Source of the DNA: Opitutales bacterium
GTDB lineage: Bacteria; Verrucomicrobiota; Verrucomicrobiia; Opitutales; JABSRG01
DNA: 64,000 bases
Direction of reading: 5' to 3'
NCBI GenBank assembly: GCA_028280845.1
Contig: JANQKZ010000014.1
Coordinates: 60,672 to 124,671 of the forward strand
Shown: piece by piece, positions 1-35,341 of the stretch
Layout of the letters: every line of letters begins with the position of its first letter
How positions within the stretch are numbered: position 1 is the stretch's first letter
The notes under the pieces: generated by a model
The model's database searches: none
What the model saw: only the letters and a program-made list of their open reading frames with translations
Told to the model about the DNA's origin: nothing
Translations under genes and position numbers: made by a program

Positions 1-427
1 TATGGGCGTAGTCGTGGATGGCCGTCTGAAGGGCGTCGGCGTATTTGGTGTCGACATTCTGTTTGGCCCGCATAGCTGCAATCATGATAGCATGTACGGC
101 TTTGAGCTGCTCCACATAATTGTCCATGGAGGGCTTGATGCGTTGAGCCAGAAAGTACTCTCCACAAAGGTCCTGAATTTTCTGAGCATGCGATTCTTTG
201 TTATTCACCCAGCGGACAAATTGCTGATGAGACTTGATGTCGCCCGGTTCTAATTTGGCCATTTCCACCATGGCTTTCCGAATCGTCTCGGTATGCTCAT
301 GCATGATGGTGAAGGTCGTTTCATCATCAAAAATTCCGCATGGCACCTGGCAGTGCGCCCCCAGGTGGGCGGAGGTGAGGAAAAAGGAAGCTACAAGGAG
401 AAGCAGAGTCAGAGGACGGTTTTTCAT
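1..427 (-). CDS. sodN: nickel superoxide dismutase precursor (NiSOD); C-terminal end runs off the window
   Basis: Absent from the supplied ORF track because there is no stop inside the window. Reverse-strand ATG at 427..425. Translation is MKNRPLTLLLLVASFFLTSAHLGA-HCQVPCGIFDDETTFTIMHEHTETIRKAM... The Ni-hook H-C-x-x-P-C-G-x-[Y/F] sits directly after a leader, which is diagnostic of NiSOD. Confidence 0.85.
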   Translation of the reverse strand, partial: MKNRPLTLLLLVASFFLTSAHLGAHCQVPCGIFDDETTFTIMHEHTETIRKAMVEMAKLEPGDIKSHQQFVRWVNNKESHAQKIQDLCGEYFLAQRIKPSMDNYVEQLKAVHAIMIAAMRAKQNVDTKYADALQTAIHDYAH

Positions 428-513
428 AATGATTATGGCGTTATGGTTGTGTGATTTTTAGCATACGCGGAGCTTTCAGCTTGTCCAATGCGATTCGTAA
501 AAAGGCGCCTGGG

Positions 514-618
514 ACGGAGGTCGGAAGTCGGAAGTCGGAGGTCGGAGATCGGAAGTCGGAGGACGGAGATCGGAAGTCGGAAGTCGGAGGTCGGAAGTCG
601 GAGGTCGGAGATCGGAAA
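514..618 (+). repeat. tandem heptanucleotide array, 15 units, consensus TCGGARG (locus A)
   Basis: Read directly: acggagg tcggaag tcggaag tcggagg tcggaga tcggaag tcggagg acggaga tcggaag tcggaag tcggagg tcggaag tcggagg tcggaga tcggaaa. Intergenic, between the lacI-family stop (661) and the sodN start (427). Confidence 0.95.
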
Positions 619-660
619 CCGGTGGCTGGGTCTAATTTAGAGTAAGAAGTAGAGATCAAT

Positions 661-1692
661 TTAGACCCTGCCCAGGGTTTGGCCATCTTGCCATTCGCAG
701 GGGACTAGGGTGATGAGGGGGGCTTTGGGGACGCCAAAGCTGTTGCGGTTCATGAGGTCTATGACCCGGATGGCGGCCTGCTCGCCCATATGCCTCCATT
801 GAGGGCGGACTCCGGAGTATTGGGGGGCTCCGGTGCTCATATCGGTGTAGATGAAACTGATATCCCTTGGAACCTGGTAACCCATTTTCTTCAGGTAATC
901 GTAAAGTCGTCGCACGGGAGAGATGACCACCTCCGGTTGATGTCGATCGAGCCATTCGGGCAACATCCGCTCAAACCCATCTTTTCGCTCTAACATGTTG
1001 AGAACCGGAATCTGGTCCTTTTCCGGAATGGTTTCCCGAGCCATGAGGTAGCCAGCCATGCGGCGGTAATTGGTCAGGGATTCCGGAATCGTATGGGTAG
1101 CGTAGCCAATCCGTTTAAAGCCGTGCTCGAGCGCCTTTTCAACAGCCATGCTCGACCCGGTGTAATGATCGGAATCAATCCGATGGACGATGGGGGAGAG
1201 GAGCGAGAATTCAATCCCCACACAGGCAAATTTGCTGAGATCAAATACGATGGATAACTTGCGCTCAAAAAAGTGCTCGAAGACCACGCCTCGAATACCA
1301 CGGGATTCTAAAATCTGAAATATTCGCTCCGGAGTCATTCCTGTTTCACTCAGATGATGGTCTTCTACCTCGTAACCGAGCTGTTGAGCCTGCTCGCGTA
1401 ACCCCTCGCGAAAGTTGAGCAAATTGATATGGACCGGGCGACCGTGGGGGACCCAGTGAATCAGAGCCAGGGTTTGCTGGGCGTGGCTCGGCGTGCCTTG
1501 ACGGACCTGGGCCATCAGAGCGGATATCAAGGGATTGGGCTGGTAGTTGAGCGTTTTGGCCGCCCGGAGAATACGGTCACGTGTCTTGGGGCTGTGGCCC
1601 GGCGTATTGCGCAAGACCCGGCTAACCGTCATTTTCGACACCCCTGCCGCGTCGGCAATGGTTTGCAAGGTCACCGGTTCGCGTGTTTCCAT
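661..1692 (-). CDS. LacI/GalR-family transcriptional regulator
   Basis: 343 aa. N-terminal HTH is VTLQTIADAAGVSKMTVSRVLRN, followed by a periplasmic-binding-protein-like sugar-binding fold. Confidence 0.9.
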   Translation of the reverse strand: METREPVTLQTIADAAGVSKMTVSRVLRNTPGHSPKTRDRILRAAKTLNYQPNPLISALMAQVRQGTPSHAQQTLALIHWVPHGRPVHINLLNFREGLREQAQQLGYEVEDHHLSETGMTPERIFQILESRGIRGVVFEHFFERKLSIVFDLSKFACVGIEFSLLSPIVHRIDSDHYTGSSMAVEKALEHGFKRIGYATHTIPESLTNYRRMAGYLMARETIPEKDQIPVLNMLERKDGFERMLPEWLDRHQPEVVISPVRRLYDYLKKMGYQVPRDISFIYTDMSTGAPQYSGVRPQWRHMGEQAAIRVIDLMNRNSFGVPKAPLITLVPCEWQDGQTLGRV

Positions 1693-1701
1693 CAGGGGAG
1701 T

Positions 1702-1717
1702 TTGTTACGTGTAACAA
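1702..1717. promoter_or_regulatory. candidate LacI-family operator: perfect palindrome TTGTTAC-GT-GTAACAA
   Basis: 7-bp perfect inverted arms with a 2-nt spacer. Lies 10 nt upstream of the regulator ATG, in the divergent region toward the sulfatase gene. Confidence 0.6.
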
Positions 1718-1753
1718 TTCTCCGCAAGGGGATTTTTGGCGGATAGAGGGAGG

Positions 1754-1858
1754 GTGGAAGTCGGAGGGCGGAGGGCGGAAGTCGGATGTCGGATGTCGGA
1801 GATCGGAAGTCGGAAATCGGAGGTCGGAAGTCGGAGGTCGGAGGTCGGAAGTCGGGGG
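1754..1858 (+). repeat. tandem heptanucleotide array, 15 units, consensus TCGGARG (locus B)
   Basis: gtggaag tcggagg gcggagg gcggaag tcggatg tcggatg tcggaga tcggaag tcggaaa tcggagg tcggaag tcggagg tcggagg tcggaag tcggggg. Same orientation as locus A. Sits in the divergent promoter region between lacI and the sulfatase. Confidence 0.95.
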
Positions 1859-2010
1859 GTATTTTCTGAAAACTGGGTTCTGGGGCTCCTACTTCGTTCC
1901 GCTAAGACGTAACTTCGAGGGGCGCGGCGCGGCTCTTCTGGAAGCGTAAGAGCAAGGCGAGGGAGAGGGAAAGGTTGATTGATGGGGGAGCTTGGTGCAT
2001 CATCTTGTTT

Positions 2011-3459
2011 ATGTTTGGTTTGAGGATCCTTGCTTTCTTTTTGGTGTTTGCATCTTCGCTGTTTGCTGAGGAGCGGCCGAATATATTGTTTTGTATCGCC
2101 GACGATTGGGGATGGCCGCACGCCGGAGCATATGGAGATGAAGGGGTGTTGACTCCGGCTTTTGACCGAGTGGCGGAGCAGGGGGTTCTGATGCGGTATG
2201 CTTTTGTCTCCTCGCCGAGTTGCACGCCGTCGCGCAACGCGATCCTCACTGGGCGATACCATTGGGAATTAGGTCCGGGGGCCCAGCTGTGGTCGACTTT
2301 ACCAGAGGAGTTGGAGACCTTCCCCCACTTGCTGGAAGATGCCGGGTACCGCATTGGACATTATCGGAAATCCTGGGGGCCTGGAAAGTTGGATGGAAAG
2401 TGGGAGAAGCGGCACCCTGCAGGACCTAAATATCAATCCTTTGAGCAGTTCCTCGCGGAGGGGCCCGAGAATCAGCCCTTTGCTTTCTGGTTGGGAGCGA
2501 GGGACCCTCACCGGGGGTATCGTGAAGGTTCCGGGGTCGAGAATGGGATCGATCTGGAGAAGGTACACCTCTTTGAGCACTTTCCAGATCATGAAGTGGT
2601 CCGATCGGATGTGGCGGACTATTATCACGAGGTGCAGCGATTTGATCGACTGGTCGGGCATGCGCTTGACCTCTTGGACGAACGCGGGGTCTTGGATAAC
2701 ACCCTCGTGGTCGTGACCGGCGATCATGGAATGCCATTTCCGCGGGCGAAATCCAACTGCTATGATTCGGGGGTGCGTGTTCCCTTGGCCATCCTTTGGA
2801 AGGCCGGAGCTATCCACCGGCTAGAGCCCTATGAATCGTTTGTTTCTCTGGTCGATCTGGCTCCCACGTTTCTAGAAGCGGCGGGGCTTGAACCGCTCGA
2901 GGTGATGAATGGGCGTTCTCTGCTGCCTGTGCTGCGGGGTGAGAAGGATGATTTTAATCGCAGCTACGTCATCTTCGGGAAGGAGCGGCATGTGCCGGGG
3001 CAGGAAGCTCCGGATATGGGGGGGTATCCGACCCGGGGAATCCGAACGGAGCGCTTTCTCTACCTGCGGAACTATCAACCTGATCGGTGGCCGAATGGAG
3101 GTCCCAATTGGAAACGGTCGGCCATCCCGGGAGTGTGGTATGGAGATACGGACAACGGGCCTACGAAAACCTATATAATCGAGCATAAGGACAGCGACGA
3201 GGCGCACGCGCGGTATTGGCAATGGAATTTCGGGAAGCGACCGGCGGAAGAGCTCTATGATTGTGAACTCGACCCGGGACAGCTGACCAACGTGATTGAT
3301 GATCCTGCCTACAAAAATGCGCTGCTCTACCTGAAGGGTCTGATGCAAGAACGCCAGCTCGCGAGCGGAGACCCACGGGCCGAGGGTGGTCCACCTTTAC
3401 CTGACTGGGATAATATGATTTATCTCGGGCGGGGACCCCGGCATCCGGATGCGAACTAG
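2011..3459 (+). CDS. formylglycine-dependent sulfatase (Cys-type), secreted
   Basis: ORF 1975..3459 begins at TTG. The ATG at 2011 gives the signal peptide MFGLRILAFFLVFASSLFA. Sulfatase motifs are PNILFCIADDWG and SCTPSRNAILTGR (C-x-P-x-R). Confidence 0.9.
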   Translation: MFGLRILAFFLVFASSLFAEERPNILFCIADDWGWPHAGAYGDEGVLTPAFDRVAEQGVLMRYAFVSSPSCTPSRNAILTGRYHWELGPGAQLWSTLPEELETFPHLLEDAGYRIGHYRKSWGPGKLDGKWEKRHPAGPKYQSFEQFLAEGPENQPFAFWLGARDPHRGYREGSGVENGIDLEKVHLFEHFPDHEVVRSDVADYYHEVQRFDRLVGHALDLLDERGVLDNTLVVVTGDHGMPFPRAKSNCYDSGVRVPLAILWKAGAIHRLEPYESFVSLVDLAPTFLEAAGLEPLEVMNGRSLLPVLRGEKDDFNRSYVIFGKERHVPGQEAPDMGGYPTRGIRTERFLYLRNYQPDRWPNGGPNWKRSAIPGVWYGDTDNGPTKTYIIEHKDSDEAHARYWQWNFGKRPAEELYDCELDPGQLTNVIDDPAYKNALLYLKGLMQERQLASGDPRAEGGPPLPDWDNMIYLGRGPRHPDAN

Positions 3460-3651: not shown

Positions 3652-4674
3652 CTACGAGAAGTCGTCGACTTCGCGGTAGGCCTCGATGAGGCGTATTTCG
3701 CCGGCTTTCCCTTTTTCCATGATGCCATGCTCCATGCCGACGATGCCGGTGAAGCCTTTTTCGTGCATGACCTTGAAGATGTTTTTGTAGTTGATCTCCC
3801 CTGTGGTGGGCTCTTTACGGCCTGGATTGTCGCCGACCTGGAAGTAGGGGGTTTCGTCCCAGCAATCGAGCATGTTGGGGATGAGGTTTCCGACGGAGAT
3901 CTGTTGGTGATAGAGATCGTTTAAGATCTTGCAGGAGGGGCTGTTGACCATTTTGCAGACGACGTAGGCATCCTGGACCCGCTCGAGGAAGAGGTTGGGG
4001 TGGTTGTAGAAGTTGAGGGGTTCGAGGACCATAACGAGGCCATGGGGTTCGAACATCCCGGCCATGTATTTCAGGTGATCGACAACGTTGAGCAATTGGT
4101 ATTCCCGGTCGAGGGAGGCGTCGATGGCGCCGGGGACGACAGTCATCCACTTGGCGTTGCAGCGTTTGGCGGTTTCGATGGCCCGTTCGCAGTGGGCTTT
4201 CAGCATGGCGCGGACACCCTCCTGGTCCCGTTCGTTTCTCCGGGGGGCAGGGGAAACAGTCCGGGTGGAGACCACGCCGTTTTCTTCGACCAGCTGAATA
4301 TCGAGGACATTGCCGGACAGTGCTCTGCTGCCGAAGGCACCGATACCGAAGGCGACGAAGACGCCCATTTCCATGCCGAGCTGATCCAACTTTTTGGAGA
4401 TGCGTTTCTGTTCGTCGAGTGGACGAAGCATCATACGATTATCCTCGAGTGCACGGAAGCCGTTATCGTAGAAGAACTGGAGTTCATCCTCGAAGTTGCC
4501 TCTTCCAACATGTTCCTTCCCCATTCCGAAATGGGGGGCATACTTGAGTTTAAACGGAGATTTAGACATGGGGCTATTAGCGGTTTCGTGTTGAGCGGCT
4601 TGGGCAGTTCCGGCAGCAACGGTGCCGAGTGCTCCTGCAGCCAGGGTAGCTTTATTGAATTCGCGACGATTCAT
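3652..4674 (-). CDS. Tat-exported xylose-isomerase-like TIM-barrel protein (hydroxypyruvate isomerase / sugar phosphate isomerase family)
   Basis: 340 aa. Twin-arginine leader is MNRREFNKATLAAGALGTVAAGTAQA. The remainder resembles the AP-endonuclease-2 / sugar isomerase TIM-barrel family. Confidence 0.7.
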   Translation of the reverse strand: MNRREFNKATLAAGALGTVAAGTAQAAQHETANSPMSKSPFKLKYAPHFGMGKEHVGRGNFEDELQFFYDNGFRALEDNRMMLRPLDEQKRISKKLDQLGMEMGVFVAFGIGAFGSRALSGNVLDIQLVEENGVVSTRTVSPAPRRNERDQEGVRAMLKAHCERAIETAKRCNAKWMTVVPGAIDASLDREYQLLNVVDHLKYMAGMFEPHGLVMVLEPLNFYNHPNLFLERVQDAYVVCKMVNSPSCKILNDLYHQQISVGNLIPNMLDCWDETPYFQVGDNPGRKEPTTGEINYKNIFKVMHEKGFTGIVGMEHGIMEKGKAGEIRLIEAYREVDDFS

Positions 4675-4853
4675 AGGCAGTTAGTGTGAAAGGCTTTTCG
4701 ATAGCTGAAAAGGAAATTGAGGCTCGCCAATTTGATGTTAAGGTCAGACGTTGAGGGTTGCTAACAAACTAAGCCCTAGACCACGTGTTCCACCCATTAA
4801 CAGTTCAGCGCAGCTGTCAATCCTCCCATTCCCGGTTAAGGGGGGCCTTGGCT

Positions 4854-5195
4854 ATGCTGTTGGCGTTGAGTTTGGTGTTGGTTTCTTTCGCGGCGTATAG
4901 CCCAGGCCTTCACGGTTGGCTGCACGGAGACCCGTCGGAGGCTGTGGCCTGCCAGGGCTATCACCATCATCATCACGCTTGTACTCACGGGGAGTCGGGG
5001 GAAGGGCCTGTTGGAGAAGAGGAGCCCCATATCTGCGGGGTGGTGCAATTGATGAATGGTGGGATGTTGTTATTTATCTTCGTTTTTTTCATTTCTATCG
5101 GACTGCTCTTCATTTTGCAGGAGCTGATCGTTAGTGCGAGTAGTGGGGCTGTTGTTCGGATAAGGGGGGCACGGGCTCCACCTGGTTTGGGTTAA
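4854..5195 (+). CDS. hypothetical His/Cys-rich small membrane protein (putative metal-binding)
   Basis: ORF 4785..5195 starts at GTG. The ATG at 4854 gives an N-terminal hydrophobic segment, then SPGLHGWLHGD, YHHHHHACTH and HICGVV, then a second TM segment. It lies immediately upstream of the TonB-dependent receptor. Confidence 0.5.
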   Translation: MLLALSLVLVSFAAYSPGLHGWLHGDPSEAVACQGYHHHHHACTHGESGEGPVGEEEPHICGVVQLMNGGMLLFIFVFFISIGLLFILQELIVSASSGAVVRIRGARAPPGLG

Positions 5196-5295: not shown

Positions 5296-7449
5296 ATGAA
5301 TTTATACAAACTCGCCTTTGGGCTTATATTTTTTATCTTACCCCTGGCTCTCTTTAGCCAGGACCCCTATACGCCGGTGGAGGACCTGGACCCCATGGTC
5401 GTCACCGGCAACGTTGCTCCGACGAAAAGTAGTGAAGTCATCTCCCCGGTTACCATTCTGACCGGCGATGACTTGGTTCGTATTCGGTCTAACTCGCTGG
5501 GAGAAACCTTGAATGGATCGCTTGGCATTCATGGAACCGCCTTTGGGGCCGGGGCCAGCCGCCCGGTGATCCGCGGCTTTGAAGGTCCCCGGGTTCGCAT
5601 CCTGGAAAGTGGTGTAGAAAGTATGGATGTTTCGGATACCAGTCCGGATCACGCCGTTAGCCTCGAACCCTTTTTTACCGAATCTATTGAAGTGGTCCGT
5701 GGGCCCTCCACGCTTCTTTATGGGAGTTCTGCCGTGGGAGGGGTCGTCAACCTGATCGATAACCGGATCCCGCGGGATAACTCCATTGCACCGGTCAGCG
5801 GTGGAGTCGAAGGACGCTATCATACGGTTTCCGAAGGGTATGACATGATGGGCCGATTCAATTATACCGAGCCCAACTGGGCGATTGGAATTACCGGCTT
5901 AACCCGGGACCACAAGGATTATGACATCCCCGGTTTTGCGGAATCCGTTTACCAGATGGAGGCTGAAGAGGCGGAGCACGATGAAGATGAAGACCATGAT
6001 GAAGGGGAAGAGCATGAACATGAAGCGGAGGAAGAGGTGTTCGGAACTCTCGAAAATAGCTTCGTTAAGACCGAAACCAGCTCGGTGGCCTTCTCCTGGT
6101 TTCCCTCCGAAGGCCAGCAAGTCAGCCTGGGCTATTTCATGATGGACTCTCAATACGGCGTGCCTGGTCACGCGCATCACCACCATGAAGATGAGCATGG
6201 TGACGAAGATCATGATGAGGGTGAGCACGATGAGGATGAAGACCATCACGATGAGGACGAGCATGGTGACGAGGAGGAAGAAATGGTGACCATCGACCTC
6301 GAGCAGCGGAAATGGGATGTCGAGGGCGCCTTCACATTTTCCGAAGGTTTTCTGGAAACGGTAAATTTCCGTTTTGCCCATTCCGACTACATCCACACCG
6401 AGTTCGAGGGAGATGAAGAGGGGACGGTGTTCGAACGCACGGGCTGGGAAGCCCGCCTGGAGGCCGGCCACCGCTTTTCGGAAACTGTGCGCGGGGTAGC
6501 CGGTATCCAATATATCGACTCGGACTTCAGCGCGGAAGGATTTGAGGCCTTCGTCCCGCCATCTGAGACAAGGGACTTCGGTATTTTTGTCTTGGAGGAA
6601 TGGACCCTGGGCGACTTTCGTCCTCAAGCCGGTATCCGTTGGGAGCAGCGGGATATCACTGCCAATACGGGCCAGGAATATGATGGCTCGGCCCTGAGCT
6701 ATTCCCTGGGAACCTTTATTCCCCTGGGGAGTTATTGGAACGCTGGGGTGACCTTTGCGCGGTCGGAGCGCCATCCTACGGCGACTGAGCTCTTTGCGGA
6801 TGGCCCTCATGCGGCGACCCGGCAATATGAGATTGGTGATCCCAACCTCGGGAAGGAAAAATCCAACGGGGTCGACGCCGTTCTCCGTCACTTGGGAGAG
6901 GTGTTTTCGGGACAGGTATCTGTCTTTTACAACCAGTTTGAAGACTACATCAATCTGGCACCTACCGGAGGTGAAGAAGACGAGCTGCCGGTATTTCAAT
7001 TCGAAGCGGTCGACGCCCGGTTTTACGGGGCAGAAGTTCAGGCTACCTGGCATGCGTATCACTCGCCGGAAAGCAGTCTGGACTTCACAGCCCTCTTTGA
7101 CATGACCCGGGCGGAGAATACGACCGATGATGTCGACCTCCCCAAGATTCCGCCCGCTCGACTGGGCGCGCGGGGCCGGTATTCCGTCGGTGGCTTTACC
7201 GTCGGGACCACCTTGCGCTACTCATTCGAGCAGGAAGACCTGGCGCCCTTTGAATTACCTACGGATGCCTTCACGGAATGGAATGCCGATATTGGTTACA
7301 GCTTTATCTGGGATGGTGCGCAAATGACGGCGTTCATTCGGGCAGACAATATCCTTGATGAGGAAATTCGTTTCCATACGTCGGCGATCAAAGACCTGGC
7401 TCCGCGACCGGGAAGGAATTTCAGCTTTGGATTTAGCGCGCAATTTTAG
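5296..7449 (+). CDS. TonB-dependent outer-membrane receptor with His/Asp/Glu-rich inserts (ZnuD-like metal receptor candidate)
   Basis: 717 aa with a signal peptide. The plug region is DPMVVTG...VEVVRGPSTLLYGSSAVGGVVNLI, and the C-terminal beta-strand ends in ...FSFGFSAQF. Inserts are EAEEAEHDEDEDHDEGEEHEHEAEEE (5956..6039) and HAHHHHEDEHGDEDHDEGEHDEDEDHHDEDEHGDEEEE (6169..6282). Confidence 0.9.
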   Translation: MNLYKLAFGLIFFILPLALFSQDPYTPVEDLDPMVVTGNVAPTKSSEVISPVTILTGDDLVRIRSNSLGETLNGSLGIHGTAFGAGASRPVIRGFEGPRVRILESGVESMDVSDTSPDHAVSLEPFFTESIEVVRGPSTLLYGSSAVGGVVNLIDNRIPRDNSIAPVSGGVEGRYHTVSEGYDMMGRFNYTEPNWAIGITGLTRDHKDYDIPGFAESVYQMEAEEAEHDEDEDHDEGEEHEHEAEEEVFGTLENSFVKTETSSVAFSWFPSEGQQVSLGYFMMDSQYGVPGHAHHHHEDEHGDEDHDEGEHDEDEDHHDEDEHGDEEEEMVTIDLEQRKWDVEGAFTFSEGFLETVNFRFAHSDYIHTEFEGDEEGTVFERTGWEARLEAGHRFSETVRGVAGIQYIDSDFSAEGFEAFVPPSETRDFGIFVLEEWTLGDFRPQAGIRWEQRDITANTGQEYDGSALSYSLGTFIPLGSYWNAGVTFARSERHPTATELFADGPHAATRQYEIGDPNLGKEKSNGVDAVLRHLGEVFSGQVSVFYNQFEDYINLAPTGGEEDELPVFQFEAVDARFYGAEVQATWHAYHSPESSLDFTALFDMTRAENTTDDVDLPKIPPARLGARGRYSVGGFTVGTTLRYSFEQEDLAPFELPTDAFTEWNADIGYSFIWDGAQMTAFIRADNILDEEIRFHTSAIKDLAPRPGRNFSFGFSAQF

Positions 7450-7958: not shown

Positions 7959-9224
7959 TTATGGGGAGAGGTAGGGGATGACCATGGGGCCTTCGGGGAG
8001 GACAGCTATGGGGGCGTGTTTTCCTAATTTCTGGACTTCGACTTGGACGGTGGTCTGGAGATCGGCCACGTATTGCATAGCAGCGCGTTCAACATCTTCC
8101 CGCGAGAGTTCACTGTAGAGGCTGACTCTGGCCTGGAGAAGAACCATGGCAAATTGCTGAATCTGCCATTGATCGAGAAAAGGGGAAGGGGCATTAAAGA
8201 CCGAATCCATCATAGATTGCGGTGATTCATTTTCGAAGATGACCCGCTTAAAGTTACCATGGTCGGGAAATCCATCGGAGCAGGCAGCAGCGGAGATGAT
8301 ATGGCCTCCCTCTTCGACAATGTGGAGGGCCGCGGTGAGTCCTTTAACGGTTTGGTAGAGGTTTTGGTCAAGGGGGAATCCGCTATTGGTCGTCAGGATC
8401 AGGGGAAAGGGCCCAGGGCAAGGAAACATGGCTGATTCTTTTGCAAATCGGCATCCGGCTGCATGGGCGGCAAGGACATCGCCGAAGAAAAACCCGGTGA
8501 TCGCTTTCTGGCGGTTCAGCGTCACATTAATGAGGAAATCGACCGGGAGCAGGGAGCCATTGGCTCGCACCTGGTCCTGTGTTGGATTGCCTACCAGGTT
8601 GCCCCAGGTGCTATGGGGATCGGCCACGACGGCGGGGCGATGGTAATGCATGATGGAGTCCAGATCGGCGATAGCAGGAAAGACCCCCTTATAACCCCCG
8701 GAGAACCCAGCCCAGAAGTGGGGTTCGATGAAGCCGAGGACGAGCCGCTTATCGGCTTCGACATAGTGGGTATTGTAGGCCACCGGATTGCCGTCCGGAT
8801 CGTGGCCGACCGGGGTCATGCTATCAGGGTCGCCGGCGTCGTGATTGACGACGGCGAAACGGTCATAGATGGCGTCTCCCAGCATGTTTCGGAGTTCCGG
8901 TTCGGTATTGGCGCGGTGGGTCCCGGTGCCGTTGATAATGGTGAATTGCTCATCGCGGACATGGTTCAGATACTCGAATAGCCAGGGGAGTACGCGCCGA
9001 AGAGGAAAGGCACGAGTTATGTCAGGAATCACGATGGCGACCCGGTCGCTGGGGCGAATGAGCTCGCGCAGGGGGGGAGATTGGTAGGGTTGCTCAAAGG
9101 CCTCGAGGCACGCCTGGTGTTCGTCGGGAACGCCAGGAACCTGTTTGGGTTCGATCAGGGTGACATTGTGGGAAGGGATTTCGATGCGGAGGTCAGTCCG
9201 GCCGTATTGGAGGAAGGTGTTCAC
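7959..9224 (-). CDS. larA: LarA-family nickel-pincer-dependent 2-hydroxyacid racemase/epimerase homolog (DUF2088)
   Basis: 421 aa, GTG start. The N-terminus YGRTDLRIEIPSHNVTLIEP...DRVAIVIPDITR and the motif INGTGTHRANT are typical of lactate racemase-like proteins. Confidence 0.75.
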   Translation of the reverse strand: MNTFLQYGRTDLRIEIPSHNVTLIEPKQVPGVPDEHQACLEAFEQPYQSPPLRELIRPSDRVAIVIPDITRAFPLRRVLPWLFEYLNHVRDEQFTIINGTGTHRANTEPELRNMLGDAIYDRFAVVNHDAGDPDSMTPVGHDPDGNPVAYNTHYVEADKRLVLGFIEPHFWAGFSGGYKGVFPAIADLDSIMHYHRPAVVADPHSTWGNLVGNPTQDQVRANGSLLPVDFLINVTLNRQKAITGFFFGDVLAAHAAGCRFAKESAMFPCPGPFPLILTTNSGFPLDQNLYQTVKGLTAALHIVEEGGHIISAAACSDGFPDHGNFKRVIFENESPQSMMDSVFNAPSPFLDQWQIQQFAMVLLQARVSLYSELSREDVERAAMQYVADLQTTVQVEVQKLGKHAPIAVLPEGPMVIPYLSP

Positions 9225-29968: not shown

Positions 29969-31927
29969 ATGGCTATCTTAGATATCATCCTATTCGTAGG
30001 ATCAGTTCTCGGTGTGATTGTCCTCGGCATTGTCATGAGCCGAGGTGAAGAATTAGAAAGCGATCATGGGGCCAGTGATTATTTCCTGGCCGGCCGTGGA
30101 TTAACCTGGTGGCTCGTCGGGTTCTCCTTGATCGCGGCGAATATTTCGACCGAACAGTTTGTCGGGATGTCCGGAAAGGCGGCAGATTGGTTGGGGATGG
30201 CGATTGCCAGTTATGAGTGGATGGCAGCTATCACGCTGGTGGTGGTCGCGTTTGTCTTTCTTCCCAAATTGTTGAAGACAGGGATCTATACGATTCCTGA
30301 GTTTTTAGAGTACCGGTATGGTCTGCTATCTCGGGCCGTTATGGCGATTGCCACCTTGATTATCCTGGTTGGGGTGCCTACGGCGTCGGTGATTTTTTCG
30401 GGGGCCAAAGTGGTCAGTGTGGCGTTTCCAGACACCCCTGTCCTTGGGAGCTTGACCGCGATGTGCTGGATCATCGGAATCTTGGCTGCGACCTACGTGT
30501 TTGTGGGCGGGTTGAAAGCCTGTGCATGGACGGACCTGGTTTGGGGATCTGCCCTCATTGTCGGTGGGGCCATCATCGCGTATCTCGCCTTTCAGGAACT
30601 GGGGTCCCGTCCCGCAGAAGAATTGATTCTGACCAAAGTCGCGACTTCTGAAGCGACGGTGGCTGATTTGGAAGCGGCCGGGGGGTTTGAGCGCTTCAAG
30701 CTCCTCAACCAGGGAGAAGCGATGGACGGCCCGAATGGAAGTGGAGGCAAACTCCATATGAAGCGATCGAAGCAGGATCCCGAAATCCCATGGACGGCCC
30801 TGGTCCTCGGCCTCTGGATTCCCAACTTTTTCTACTGGGGGTTGAACCAGTATATTGTGCAACGGACCCTGGGGTCCAAGTCCCTGGCTGAAGGCCAAAA
30901 GGGAGTTGTCTTTGCGGCATTCCTCAAGCTGATCATTCCCTTTGTGGTGGTGATTCCAGGTATCTTGGCCTTTAACCTGTTTAGCGGCGATTTAAAGACC
31001 GAGGCGGATCGAAAGAACGCCGTGGTGATTGCAGACTTTGAGACTTCTCCCGAGAAGGTGTTCCCCTTCAGCCCCGAATTTGCGACGGTCAACCCGGAGA
31101 TGGCGCGCAGAATGTATGACCACAACCGGGCTCAGCTGGGGCCAGTCATGACGATGGAGTGGACCCCGGATGAATTTCTCGCCGAACGCAACGCCGGCGT
31201 GATTGCGGAAGCGTCATCAAAGAACATTCCTTCGACCACACCTGTGGTTGGATATGACTACGATGCTGCTTTCGGAACGCTGCTGAAAAATCTGCTCTTT
31301 CCCGGCATTCGGTGGTTTGTGTTTGCGGCCATTACCGGGGCTGTGATCAGCTCACTAGCCTCCATGCTCAACTCAGCCTCCACCATCGCGACGATGGATG
31401 TATATAACAAGTTGAGGAAGAATGCCTCGCAGCTCGAGTTGGTCAAGGCCGGACGCGGCTTTGTGGTCGCCTTTGTCCTGATTGCCTCGATCATTGCACC
31501 TACCCTGGGGAGCCCGGTCTTCTCCGGGATCTTTACCTTTATCCAGGAATTCCAAGGGTTTATCAGCCCTGGTATCCTAGCGGTGTTCCTGTTCGGCTTC
31601 CTGGTCCCCAAGGCCCCAAAATACCTCGGATGGGTTGGTATCCTGGCTAATGTTATATTGTATGGCTTTTTCAAATGGATCGGCGGACCTCTACTGGTTG
31701 AGAACGGGCTTTGGTTTTCTTCCGAAATGGCCTTCCTGGACCGGATGGGTGTCTGCTTTATCATTGTCCTGATTATATGCGGAGTGGCGACCCTCGTGAA
31801 TCCGCTGAAGGAACCGGTGAAGATGCCTGTGAATGAGCAGATGGATGTGACGCCATCCAAGACCGCCTTTTATGGCGGGATTGGGGTGGTGGCGTGTACC
31901 GTCGTCCTCTACGCCATCTTCTGGTAG
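29969..31927 (+). CDS. sodium:solute symporter (SSS/SGLT family)
   Basis: 652 aa polytopic protein. DYFLAGRGLTWWLVGFSLIAANISTEQFVGMSG is the canonical SSS N-terminal pattern. Confidence 0.9.
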   Translation: MAILDIILFVGSVLGVIVLGIVMSRGEELESDHGASDYFLAGRGLTWWLVGFSLIAANISTEQFVGMSGKAADWLGMAIASYEWMAAITLVVVAFVFLPKLLKTGIYTIPEFLEYRYGLLSRAVMAIATLIILVGVPTASVIFSGAKVVSVAFPDTPVLGSLTAMCWIIGILAATYVFVGGLKACAWTDLVWGSALIVGGAIIAYLAFQELGSRPAEELILTKVATSEATVADLEAAGGFERFKLLNQGEAMDGPNGSGGKLHMKRSKQDPEIPWTALVLGLWIPNFFYWGLNQYIVQRTLGSKSLAEGQKGVVFAAFLKLIIPFVVVIPGILAFNLFSGDLKTEADRKNAVVIADFETSPEKVFPFSPEFATVNPEMARRMYDHNRAQLGPVMTMEWTPDEFLAERNAGVIAEASSKNIPSTTPVVGYDYDAAFGTLLKNLLFPGIRWFVFAAITGAVISSLASMLNSASTIATMDVYNKLRKNASQLELVKAGRGFVVAFVLIASIIAPTLGSPVFSGIFTFIQEFQGFISPGILAVFLFGFLVPKAPKYLGWVGILANVILYGFFKWIGGPLLVENGLWFSSEMAFLDRMGVCFIIVLIICGVATLVNPLKEPVKMPVNEQMDVTPSKTAFYGGIGVVACTVVLYAIFW

Positions 31928-32072
31928 CGGAAAGGTCTGGACGGTTGAAGGCTTTCCGGGGTCGGCCTCAGCTCCAACGTATAAGAACCAGCTTATGGAG
32001 GTGGGAACCCCGGCTTCCTTTTTTAGAGGGGCTCTGGTTTGGGCTTTTCTTGTACTATGGGAGTTTGATTGT

Positions 32073-33803
32073 ATGTCGACCGCTATGGAAATTCTAATCA
32101 ATCATCTGGGTTACCGGTCAGCCTGTCCGAAGGTCGCGATTCTTCAGGCGTGGGAGCCCTTTGAGGGGGCTCCGGTAGTGGAACTGGTGGAGGTCTCGAC
32201 CAGTGAGGTGGTCCTGGAAATGGAGGGAGCAGGCAATCAGCCGGTGGATGGTTGGACGGGTCGATGGTTTTCGTCGGTCGACTTTTCCCAGGTGGATTCG
32301 CCAGGGACCTATTACCTGGTAAGTGGCGATCATCGGTCGCCTGCTTTTGAGATTCAGGAGACGGCGGCTTTGCTGGAGGAACCGCTTTCCGATATTCTGC
32401 ACTATTTCAAGTCGCAACGCAGCGGAGGGGTGTATGACCGGCATGACCGGAAATGCCCCATTTATGGAGAGGACCGAAGCGTGGATGTACATGGGGGGTG
32501 GTATGACGCCTCCGGGGACGTGAGCAAATATCTGAGTCACCTCTCCTACGCCAACTATCTCAACCCACAGCAGACACCTATGGTGGTCTGGAATTTCCTC
32601 AAGGCTTACACCCTGTTAGCGGCTAATGGAAGGGTGTCGGATTATACCCTGGAACGTATCCTGGACGAGGCCACCCATGGCGGGGATTTTCTTGTCCGTA
32701 TGCAGGATGAAGCAGGGTTCTTCTACATGATTGTTTTTGATGTCTGGAGTAAGGATGTGAGTCAGCGGGATATCTGTTCCTACGCGACCCAGGCGGGCCA
32801 TAAATCGAATCAATATCAGGCCGGTTTTCGGCAGGGGGGCGGGTTGGCTATCGCTGCGCTGGCCGCGCTATCTCGTTTCCCCAGTCATGGGGATTACCCG
32901 GCCTCCACTTACTGGGAGTGTGCAGAGAAGGGATATCTTCACTTAAAGGAACACAACGAAGCTTACCTGGATGATGGCAAAGCCAACATCATCGATACAT
33001 ATTGTGCGCTCCTCGCCTCGGTTGAGCTGACGAAGGCGGCGAAGAACCCGGACCAGCAGTCCTTTTACCTGGAGGAGGCCCGGGTGTGGGCCTCCGAGCT
33101 CATGTCTTATCTGCACGAGCATCCGGATTATGGGGTATTGTGGATGGCTAATTCTGAGGGCACCCGACCCTATTTCCATGCGACGGAAGCCGGGCTTCCC
33201 GTTCTCGCCCTGATGGAATACCTTTCCGTTGAACCTGATGCTGAACGGAGAGGCCCTATCTCAGTGGCCTGCAAACGGTCTATTCAGGCCGAAGTGTCCA
33301 TGACACAAGCGGTTTGGAACCCCTTTGGATATGCCCGACAGGTGACGCAGTCCCTAAGCGGGGTGCGTCAGGCGGCGTTCTTTGTCCCGCATGCCAACGA
33401 GAGTGGCTATTGGTGGCAGGGGGAAAATGCGCGGCTGGCGTCCCTGGTTTCCATGGGCATGCTAGCGATAGGCACGCTGCGCCTTGATCCGGCTACGGCG
33501 GTAGAAATCCAGCGATATAGCACGCAGCTATTGGATTGGATTTTTGGTCTCAACCCATTCGATACCTGTATGCTGGATGGGCATGGGCGCAATAATCCAA
33601 GCTATTGGCCAGAGGCCGGATACTACAACGCCAAGGGAGGAGTCTGTAACGGGATCACATCCGGGTTTGAAGATGAGCAGGATATCGCCTTCAAGCCGGA
33701 ACCTCATGACAAGGATCCGATGCAGAATTGGAGGTGGGGGGAGCAGTGGATTCCCCATGCGGGGTGGTTGTTCCTGGCGATCGTGGCGTGGGAGCTTAAG
33801 TAG
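32073..33803 (+). CDS. GH9-like glycoside hydrolase with N-terminal Ig-like domain, no signal peptide
   Basis: The ATG at 32073 (MSTAMEILINHLGY...) avoids overlap with the SSS gene; the track ORF starts at 31872. HYFKSQRSG and HGGWYDASGDVSKY resemble the GH9 QRSG / GGWYDAGD blocks. Confidence 0.7.
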   Translation: MSTAMEILINHLGYRSACPKVAILQAWEPFEGAPVVELVEVSTSEVVLEMEGAGNQPVDGWTGRWFSSVDFSQVDSPGTYYLVSGDHRSPAFEIQETAALLEEPLSDILHYFKSQRSGGVYDRHDRKCPIYGEDRSVDVHGGWYDASGDVSKYLSHLSYANYLNPQQTPMVVWNFLKAYTLLAANGRVSDYTLERILDEATHGGDFLVRMQDEAGFFYMIVFDVWSKDVSQRDICSYATQAGHKSNQYQAGFRQGGGLAIAALAALSRFPSHGDYPASTYWECAEKGYLHLKEHNEAYLDDGKANIIDTYCALLASVELTKAAKNPDQQSFYLEEARVWASELMSYLHEHPDYGVLWMANSEGTRPYFHATEAGLPVLALMEYLSVEPDAERRGPISVACKRSIQAEVSMTQAVWNPFGYARQVTQSLSGVRQAAFFVPHANESGYWWQGENARLASLVSMGMLAIGTLRLDPATAVEIQRYSTQLLDWIFGLNPFDTCMLDGHGRNNPSYWPEAGYYNAKGGVCNGITSGFEDEQDIAFKPEPHDKDPMQNWRWGEQWIPHAGWLFLAIVAWELK

Positions 33804-33856
33804 GAAATCAGAAATCAGAAATCGGAAATCAGAAATCGGAAGTCGGTGGTCGGAGG
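33802..33856 (+). repeat. heptanucleotide array (locus C, ~8 units; TCAGAAA grading into TCGGAGG)
   Basis: aggaaa tcagaaa tcagaaa tcggaaa tcagaaa tcggaag tcggtgg tcggagg. Starts inside the GH9-like stop codon, in a convergent intergenic region. Confidence 0.85.
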
Positions 33857-33973
33857 ATCTCCGCTTCCGTTGTCGTTACGTCGTGCCGAGACAAGTCGCT
33901 CCGTGATGCTGGTGGCCTGGAGCGTTGTCGTGATAACGGCGGCTAGCGCCCGGAGCACATTTTTGTTCTCATA

Positions 33974-35341
33974 TCAACCATTCATGAGGTACCCCTCTCG
34001 ATAGGGTTTAGTGAGGAAAGCATTGGCGGATTCCAGATTCGTTACGAGACCATTGGCGCCGTCATAGGTGAGGGTGGGCCGTTCGCCCATTTCTCCTTCG
34101 CCTTCACCGGCGCGGAAGCCGACGAGGCCGAGGCACATGGTTTCGATCATATCCGCACTGTATTTAAAGTTACAGGCAGTGTTCATGGGGTCGCCATTTC
34201 TGCAAGCGGCGGTCCATTGCTTCTGGAAGTGCTCCAAGGGGGGCTCCAGCTCGTCTTCGGATGGGGGATCGAAATAGGTCAGGTCGGCCTGTGCACCGTA
34301 GGGATAAAGAATGCGATTGCGAAAATCGGCAATGATGAAGCCACGATCTCCCTTGAACCATGCTCCATGGCCGATGGCATTGAGGTTGACCCAGTCGAGG
34401 GGGGATTCGGGCATGGCGCCGCCCTGATACCAAGTGACCCGGATATCTTCGCGCCAGTCATTGGCGGGGAAGATATAACTGGCTGACATGTTGACCGGGG
34501 TCACATCCCGGTTGAGGGATTCGGGAGAGGCGACAGAGATGCTGGTGGGGAGCTCGGCGTCGATGACATTCCAGACGAGGTCCATGGTATGGCTGCCCAT
34601 ATCCCCGATCTGGCCGACACCCCAGTCCCAATACATATTCCACTGAAGGCAGTTCAGCCCGACCTTGCCCTTAACGTACTCGGGGTGGAATGGACGATAG
34701 GGGGAGGGTCCGAGCCAGAGGTCCCAGTTTAGTGTATCCGGAGGTTGGATACCGGCGAGATAGCCGGGTTTAGGGATTTGCCGGTTACCCCAGACAGCTA
34801 CATCTCTCAAGTCGCCGATGGCGCCCCCATGAATCATTTCCCGCAAGCGGCTGAAGTTGGGATGGGCATGGCGCTGCATGCCGACCTGGGTGGCCAGCTT
34901 GTCCTTCTTCTTCATGTAGGTTTCCCGAACGATGCGAGATTCTTCGACAGTGATGGCAAGGGGCTTCTCCATAAAGCAATGGAGGTCGCGATTGAGGGAC
35001 CAGTTGGCGATGAAGGCGTGGTGATGATCCGGGGTGCAACAGAGGACAGCATCGAGGCCCGGATGGTCCAGGGCCTTGCGCCAGTCTTCGTAGACTTTGG
35101 CCTTGGGGAATTCCTTCACTGCGTAAGGCAGGTTCTTCTGATTGACTTCACAGATGGCGACCACATTTTCGTCGTGCAATGTGGCGTAATGCGCCTTGGC
35201 CCGGCCATAAGCGCCGATTAAGGCGATATTGAGCTTATTGTTGGGGCGATTCTTTCCGAACAGGGTCCCGGTAGGAAGAATCATGAGCCCAGCACCGGTA
35301 GCACTGGCACGTTTGATGAGTTGTCGACGGGTAATAGCCAT
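33974..35341 (-). CDS. Tat-exported Gfo/Idh/MocA-family oxidoreductase
   Basis: 455 aa. Twin-arginine leader is [23 protein letters not shown]. Rossmann region is [14 protein letters not shown]. Confidence 0.85.

Follow-up and report, generated by a model that had tools for sequence, protein, structure and literature searches.

Tandem arrays of heptanucleotide units are a recurrent feature of prokaryotic genomes. The cyanobacterial STRR heptamers, which Mazel and colleagues are said to have described in 1990, are reportedly CCCCAGT, TTGGTCA and CAACAGT. More generally, heptanucleotides are the most abundant among the long simple-sequence repeats (SSRs) with 5–11-nt units in prokaryotes and are ascribed to polymerase slippage, at least as the original survey is summarized in a later paper (Mrazek, Guo and Shah 2007, via PMC4679880). 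One heptamer, TAACTGA, forms direct repeats in organisms as distant as Beggiatoaceae, Cyanobacteria and Bacteroidetes (MacGregor 2015, PMC4679880), and in Haemophilus influenzae the (ATCTTTC)n array in the 5′ untranslated region (UTR) of hmw1A is transcribed, forms a long hairpin by pairing with a G-rich arm, and is cut by RNase III (PMC12721329). Here we consider arrays of the unit TCGGARG in 64,000 nt of contig JANQKZ010000014.1 from an Opitutales bacterium (the window, to whose first letter all coordinates without a locus label refer), two of which, A and B, flank a gene for a LacI-family regulator (lacI). We favor, with a probability of roughly 0.6, the reading that these arrays are long heptanucleotide SSRs, non-coding and similar to variable number tandem repeats (VNTRs), which belong to a dispersed (TCRGARR)n family in a Verrucomicrobiota-like genome. 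Nothing shows that arrays A and B are a device built around the LacI regulator.

Arrays A (514–618) and B (1754–1858) each comprise 15 units with the G-rich strand on the plus strand; the former lies 42 nt beyond the lacI stop codon and the latter 61 nt ahead of the lacI start. Array A is fairly uniform and reads, in register, ACGGAGG TCGGAAG TCGGAAG TCGGAGG TCGGAGA TCGGAAG TCGGAGG ACGGAGA for units 1–8 and TCGGAAG TCGGAAG TCGGAGG TCGGAAG TCGGAGG TCGGAGA TCGGAAA for units 9–15. In array B the first six units are degenerate (GTGGAAG, GCGGAGG, GCGGAAG and two copies of TCGGATG are found there), the order being GTGGAAG TCGGAGG GCGGAGG GCGGAAG TCGGATG TCGGATG TCGGAGA TCGGAAG for units 1–8 and TCGGAAA TCGGAGG TCGGAAG TCGGAGG TCGGAGG TCGGAAG TCGGGGG for units 9–15. 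Each array contains five GGAGG motifs and 14–16 GGA motifs. Tandem Repeats Finder (TRF) recovers both with a period of 7, array A at 515–616 (14.6 copies, 84% matches) and array B at 1756–1855 (14.3 copies, 83% matches), and, when up to one mismatch is allowed, the two-unit probe TCGGARGTCGGARG yields 22 matches, all of them on the plus strand, against 0.14 in shuffled sequence, where 0 of 100 shuffles reach 22.

TRF and the probe counts thereby confirm what a preliminary description of this DNA had claimed, namely two (TCGGARG)n arrays of about 15 units, on one strand, flanking lacI. Its statement that both are intergenic also stands: the open reading frames (ORFs) drawn across them in a mechanical list (441–686, 451–645, 1683–1949 and 1705–2262) are artifacts, because the TCGGARG unit is free of stops in all six frames. 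The two arrays are, as had been noted, unlike in unit order, with an in-register identity of 77–89% depending on the shift and a longest common exact run of 27 nt. The 49-nt super-period proposed for array A fares less well, since the self-identity of 0.88 at that shift is real but is equaled at shifts of 21, 42 and 63 nt (0.88, 0.87 and 0.90), and TRF prefers a period of 21. An independent assembly of the locus by Logan (SRR20820735) is identical to the window over 580–1852 and its contig terminates within both arrays, which shows that the array sequence can be reproduced and that k-mer assemblies break at the repeats. As arrays well beyond read or k-mer length break short-read assemblies, the equal count of 15 units in A and B, although real in the assembly, may have little meaning.

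A third array, which the preliminary description did not include, places the first two in a wider setting. Array C, (TCRGARR)8, occupies 33803–33858 on the plus strand, some 32 kb from the other two, and its eight units begin as TCAGAAA/TCGGAAA and grade into TCGGAAG, TCGGTGG and TCGGAGG (TRF gives 5.4–6.3 copies). It is located in a convergent gap, between a GH9 glycoside hydrolase gene (31872–33803, plus strand), whose TAG stop codon at 33801–33803 is in register with the first unit of the array, and a GFO/IDH/MocA oxidoreductase gene (33974–35341, minus strand), whose 3′ end faces it; exact-protein look-ups for both of these genes returned no match. The 64-kb window thus holds three arrays, each within an intergenic gap, and since array C sits beside GH9 and oxidoreductase genes, the (TCRGARR)n family is dispersed rather than tied to lacI. 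Given three arrays and 29 usable intergenic gaps, a pair in adjacent gaps is expected by chance at about 0.2, so the bracketing of lacI is not statistically remarkable. The G-rich strand of all three arrays is on the plus strand, which shows a strong and uniform GC skew of +0.12 (G over C) throughout the window. With 26 kb of coding sequence on the plus strand and 33 kb on the minus strand, this skew is not driven by gene orientation.

How might such arrays arise? In the reading that we favor, 7 nt would have been duplicated by chance, and strand slippage during replication or repair would then have made the array grow and shrink and would have homogenized its units. MutS-dependent mismatch repair does not act on loops as large as 7 nt. 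The arrays would persist only in intergenic spacers, where nothing essential is disrupted, and their G-rich strand would tend to fall on the strand that is already G-rich. Arrays A and B would be independent members of the family that came to occupy neighboring spacers by happenstance; at most, they would provide spacing of variable length and, weakly, a substrate on which lacI might rarely be deleted. What we infer here is that slippage generates the arrays and that they are neutral at the lacI locus; turnover in length and in unit sequence is observed at orthologous sites in other genomes.

Two such sites carry the case for turnover. In a pair of Chitinophagales genomes with 87% identical flanks, the spacer from the glnS stop codon to a conserved intrinsic terminator contains an array, which hence belongs to the 3′ UTR; this array comprises 22 units of mixed sequence (TAGGAAG/TAAGAAG/TCGGAAG) in one genome (L005:1954–2107) versus 12 pure TCGGAAG units in the other (L103:3872–3955). 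In a pair of Bacteroidota with 79% identical flanks, an array directly after a TGA stop codon has kept its position while its unit sequence has changed, from (GCAGTAG)8 to (GGAAGTC)8 or more or in the reverse direction (L009:6230–6300 versus L120:1870–1937), and here the unit sequence has been replaced by homogenization. Among 80 further metagenomic glnS loci (59–84% protein identity) there is no (TCGGARG)-family array at the site, and one of the 80 bears an unrelated (CGTCACC)n array in the analogous place (L340:3221–3311). Judged from these sequence comparisons, the arrays are lineage-specific gains whose length and unit change on an evolutionary time scale.

The unit itself is widespread. 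A scan for (TCGGARG)3, using one genome per species, returned at least 120 stretches from many phyla, these being raw counts without denominators. By record title, 40 among the 120 matches listed belong to the PVC superphylum (Verrucomicrobiota, Planctomycetota, Lentisphaerota, Kiritimatiellota and Omnitrophota), which suggests a PVC enrichment of (TCGGARG)n arrays; the other matches listed comprise 29 from Bacteroidota, 10 from Desulfobacterota, 9 from Proteobacteria, 5 from Cyanobacteria and a scattered remainder. Among the matches listed, carriers include isolate genomes and long-read chromosome-level assemblies (Algoriphagus halophytocola TR-M5, NZ_CP110226, Xanthomonas sp. Leaf148 and Thalassolituus marinus IMCC1826 are examples of carriers that can be cultivated), and array size ranges from 4 to 33 units and up to 225–242 nt, often at contig ends. 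The same loci also contain unrelated heptamer arrays. The earlier remark that no equivalent had been described in PVC bacteria therefore needs qualification: no paper naming the unit was found, a literature search for TCGGARG as a bacterial repeat having returned none and only eukaryotic ETS-site and primer matches, but the arrays are not rare, with at least 40 PVC loci listed. In viral contigs the TCGGARG unit forms 32 stretches and two scrambled heptamers of equal composition form 99 and 17. Since the scrambled heptamers are about equally common there, recurrence across phyla needs no dedicated mechanism, and a general propensity for heptamers suffices. Through-reading ORFs contain 31 of 66 short arrays (4–5 units) but only 5 of 46 arrays with at least six units.

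Some genomes also carry inverted, back-to-back pairs of short arrays (L072:844–898, and also L043, L053, L080 and L061), which as single-stranded DNA or RNA would fold into long hairpins. An origin of the arrays from the Shine–Dalgarno (SD) site of the downstream gene was considered and rejected, as array 3′ ends are usually far from the next start codon.

The placement of arrays relative to genes was analyzed for 112 arrays of at least four units (L002–L121). Their G-rich strand coincides with the locally G-rich strand in 71 versus 40 cases, and in 20 versus 5 for longer arrays at clearly skewed loci. All four possible flanking-gene arrangements occur. Several other observations weigh against the reading that we favor. 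Counting the stop codons of ORFs of 100 aa or more, the G-rich strand of the array begins no more than 20 nt past one on the same strand in 29 of the 112 arrays and the C-rich strand does so in 7, the gene models being crude ORF-based calls; for arrays of at least six units the corresponding numbers are 12 and 2. Often the first unit of such a post-stop array is degenerate and keeps register with the stop codon. For a scrambled control heptamer, stop adjacency in viral contigs is symmetric (15 versus 14). Pure neutrality does not predict this strand-specific post-stop bias, which may result from purine-rich gene ends that seed purine-rich repeats or from a role at the transcript level. In addition, the arrays are not extremely unstable, as short arrays are identical within each of three pairs of viral contigs that come from different samples and match at 100%, and arrays have been kept at the same site through 13–21% flank divergence. 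Finally, the turnover described above is seen in other genomes only, the closest non-identical LacI homologue having 43% identity; the homologues bear the names Verrucomicrobia, Rariglobus and Coraliomargarita, and five LacI-homologue loci (L122–L129) show other gene contexts and no heptamer arrays.

Translation initiation in this organism bears on how GGAGG-rich DNA is tolerated. In the window, an SD-like motif precedes 4 of 48 predicted starts against a background of 16%, which bears out the earlier claim that the genome lacks SD sites; leaders are G-poor (17–19% G), and CCTCC or CTCCC occurs in the 25 nt before 7 of the 48 starts against a background of 6.6%. Because the organism does not use SD-led initiation, runs of GGAGG would be harmless here, and an SD-independent genome should be able to tolerate arrays rich in GGAGG. 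As for RNA structure, an Rfam search of the entire window matched no family. The predicted folds of the arrays, as of the putative leaders or 3′ UTRs, are ladders of 2-bp helices, no better than those of shuffled sequences except for the plus strand of array B (z = −3.2), and the full leaders show no extra stability relative to shuffles (1740–2013 on the plus strand, z = 0.10; 425–700 on the minus strand, z = −0.17). For a GGA-repeat sponge RNA of the CsrB/RsmZ type there was no Rfam match, and the arrays are not predicted to form discrete hairpins. The sequence CTCCTACTTCGTTCCGC (1886–1902), which closely follows array B, is partly complementary to the array units; in the predicted fold it pairs with the final units of that array, at a stability no better than that of shuffles.

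The lacI gene between the two arrays (661–1692, minus strand) encodes Pfam LacI and Peripla_BP_3 domains. Downstream of array A lies sodN for a nickel superoxide dismutase (Ni-SOD; 2–427, minus strand). On the other side, a sulfatase gene (1975–3459, plus strand), whose true start is likely the ATG at 2011 ahead of a signal-peptide-like sequence, is separated from lacI by a divergent spacer of 282 nt that holds array B, and is followed by a gene for a xylose-isomerase-like TIM-barrel protein (3652–4674, minus strand). The perfect 14-bp palindrome TGTTACGTGTAACA (1703–1716), situated between lacI and array B and 11 nt ahead of the lacI start, is a candidate LacI-family operator; the window has no further exact copy and no other good match, and none was found close to the genes for the sulfatase or the TIM-barrel protein. 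On the side of lacI that faces array A, a hairpin predicted across the lacI stop codon (613–685, minus strand; −22.5 kcal/mol, z = −2.2) has no U-tract. Array A as it would appear in the lacI transcript, that is, as CYTCCGA repeats, contains 49 C and 15 G in its 105 nt. A sigma-70-like promoter match (TGGACA-16-TATGCT; 460–487, minus strand), by consensus only, is found between array A and the sodN start, its −35 hexamer 27 nt from the array, which lies upstream; it was the sole match in a scan of 300–2200, and none was found in the lacI/sulfatase spacer.

Further along the window, the neighborhood includes several nickel-linked features in addition to sodN (2–427, minus strand): a small ORF with an HHHHH motif (4785–5195, plus strand), a TonB-dependent receptor (5296–7449, plus strand) with a long His/Asp/Glu-rich insert (an 18-nt tandem repeat at 5964–6017), and a homologue of the LarA-type lactate racemase, which uses the nickel-pincer cofactor (7959–9224, minus strand). 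The region from sodN to the larA-like gene may be a cluster for nickel uptake and use. No transposase was seen in the window.

The post-stop bias invites the question of whether the arrays are selected intergenic RNA elements, the sense (UCGGARG)n array being a 3′-UTR module placed straight after the stop codon. We consider this possible but unlikely. Under it, the sense array might block exonucleases, fold into an RNA G-quadruplex of two tetrads, or offer a protein or the 30S subunit a place to land, and the antisense (CYUCCGA)n array, C-rich and G-poor, would be a loading site for Rho that insulates neighboring units, with array A separating lacI from sodN. The strand bias in stop adjacency (29 versus 7, or 12 versus 2 at six or more units) together with the unbiased control heptamer is consistent with such an element, as are the glnS array of L005 and L103 inside its 3′ UTR between stop codon and conserved terminator, the post-stop array of L009 and L120 that was retained despite a changed unit sequence, the start of array C at the GH9 stop codon, and the 49 C and 15 G of array A in the lacI transcript, after a hairpin without a U-tract. 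However, the sense post-stop arrangement applies to only one of the three arrays in the window, most relatives lack an array at the same site, the folds are no better than shuffles, the bias could stem from purine-rich gene ends seeding purine-rich repeats, and few canonical terminators adjoin arrays (6 versus 1 of 100 in a strict scan of other genomes, counts that carry little information). Rather unlikely, too, is an extension of this idea to a selected RNA module, either convergent or horizontally acquired, that recurs across PVC, Bacteroidota and other bacteria and in which A and B would insulate lacI from its neighbors. Arrays in the sense post-stop position might then be 3′-UTR stabilizers or landing pads for ribosomes or RNA-binding proteins, and arrays in the opposite orientation C-rich insulators of the Rho type.

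Alternatively, the arrays could be contingency repeats of the phase-variation kind, such that the unit number of B or A would alter the expression of lacI, the sulfatase gene or sodN. This would draw on the position of B in a divergent regulatory spacer beside a LacI-type palindrome, on that of A just upstream of the promoter-like site of sodN, on orthologous arrays elsewhere that differ in unit number, and on hmw1A as the precedent of a transcribed heptamer SSR that controls expression (PMC12721329). We nevertheless deem it improbable, as arrays of 105 nt are too long to sit within a core promoter, no promoter was found in the lacI/sulfatase spacer, no stable hairpin like that of hmw is predicted (z = 0.1), the family occurs in all four flanking-gene arrangements, and the host is environmental and not a host-adapted pathogen; array C, being in a convergent 3′ gap, cannot control initiation at all. 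Still more doubtful is the preliminary description's proposal of a recombination device, in which a deletion between A and B, whether by RecA or by slippage, would remove lacI and heritably derepress its neighbors. The 27-nt exact run shared by A and B is close to the shortest length at which RecA-dependent recombination works in E. coli, and the geometry, with 105-nt direct repeats 1.24 kb apart and exactly one gene between them, would be suitable. Yet the bracketing has a chance of about 0.2, the identity between A and B is 77–89% only, the event would be irreversible, the sole independent assembly (Logan) keeps lacI between the arrays, and the array family is not tied to regulators. Also hard to sustain, and in our view highly improbable, is the suggestion that GGAGG on the plus strand mimics SD sites, or CCUCC on the minus strand anti-SD sites, and titrates ribosomes or 16S rRNA: the five GGAGG motifs per array, the G-poor leaders and their mild enrichment in CCTCC/CTCCC (7/48 versus 6.6%) would fit, but half of the units read GGAAG rather than GGAGG, arrays occur in SD-using and SD-free phyla alike, and in a genome without SD use a mimic of either kind has no evident target. 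That the arrays derive from adapters or misassembly is scarcely credible. The 10-nt prefix of the Illumina TruSeq adapter, AGATCGGAAG, does occur at 546, 567 and 1800, but the match never extends beyond 10 nt and is explained by TCGGAGA followed by TCGGAAG. An adapter or assembly artifact is further rejected by the Logan copy, which is exact up to its contig ends, and by the presence of arrays in isolate and long-read assemblies.

Taken as long SSRs, the arrays have some practical bearing. For annotation, they are simple-sequence DNA, neither genes nor a lacI-specific switch, and heptamer arrays account for breaks of short-read assemblies in the intergenic spacers of such genomes. They could be used as VNTR markers for the strain typing of uncultivated Verrucomicrobiota. 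If it holds that the heptamer is commonest in SD-poor lineages, the loss of SD use would relax selection against GGAGG-rich DNA, and if the strand-specific post-stop placement holds, it would hint at a role or an origin at gene ends that is undescribed for heptamer repeats.

How, then, do these arrays compare with known repeat systems? Repetitive extragenic palindromic elements and their mosaics (REP/BIME) likewise form a dispersed non-coding family, often at gene 3′ ends, but REP units are palindromic and linked to the RAYT transposase, whereas the window arrays are non-palindromic tandem repeats. The hmw1A repeat resembles them in being a heptamer array of a regulatory spacer through which, in principle, expression could be tuned by unit number; it differs in that no comparable hairpin is predicted for the window arrays and in that the present host is not a host-adapted pathogen. 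Closer are the TAACTGA repeats, in which one heptamer likewise forms intergenic tandem arrays in distant phyla with other heptamers mixed in, close strains differ by 7-nt length steps, and contigs end in repeats. In the Beggiatoaceae genome BOGUAY, TAACTGA occurs in 2–6 copies, in forward orientation, a few nt upstream of start codons (PMC4679880), whereas the window arrays have 8–15 units of a different sequence and no start codon closer than 61 nt. With the STRR heptamers of cyanobacteria, the arrays share a dispersed, intergenic, tandem organization, no assigned function and a tendency to hinder assembly, and the analogy that the preliminary description drew with them is apt, the arrays being real non-coding heptamer tandem repeats. 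The window units, TCGGAAG/TCGGAGG and variants, nonetheless differ from every described STRR heptamer, and the host lies outside the Cyanobacteria; five of the assemblies with (TCGGAAG)n arrays among the matches listed are, however, cyanobacterial.

The closest match is with the prokaryotic long SSRs as a class. The arrays consist of a tandem unit within 5–11 nt, exceed the length expected from composition, and occupy several mainly non-coding loci (three in 64 kb), and they share with the long SSRs, as these are summarized in PMC4679880, the prevalence of tandem heptamers, the mostly intergenic location at many loci per genome and the scattered distribution across free-living phyla. Neither the TCGGARG unit nor a PVC host occurs among the cases that the literature search found described, and strand-biased placement after stop codons is not part of the account in that summary. 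What is new here is the TCGGARG unit and its PVC host, within the known class of prokaryotic long SSRs.

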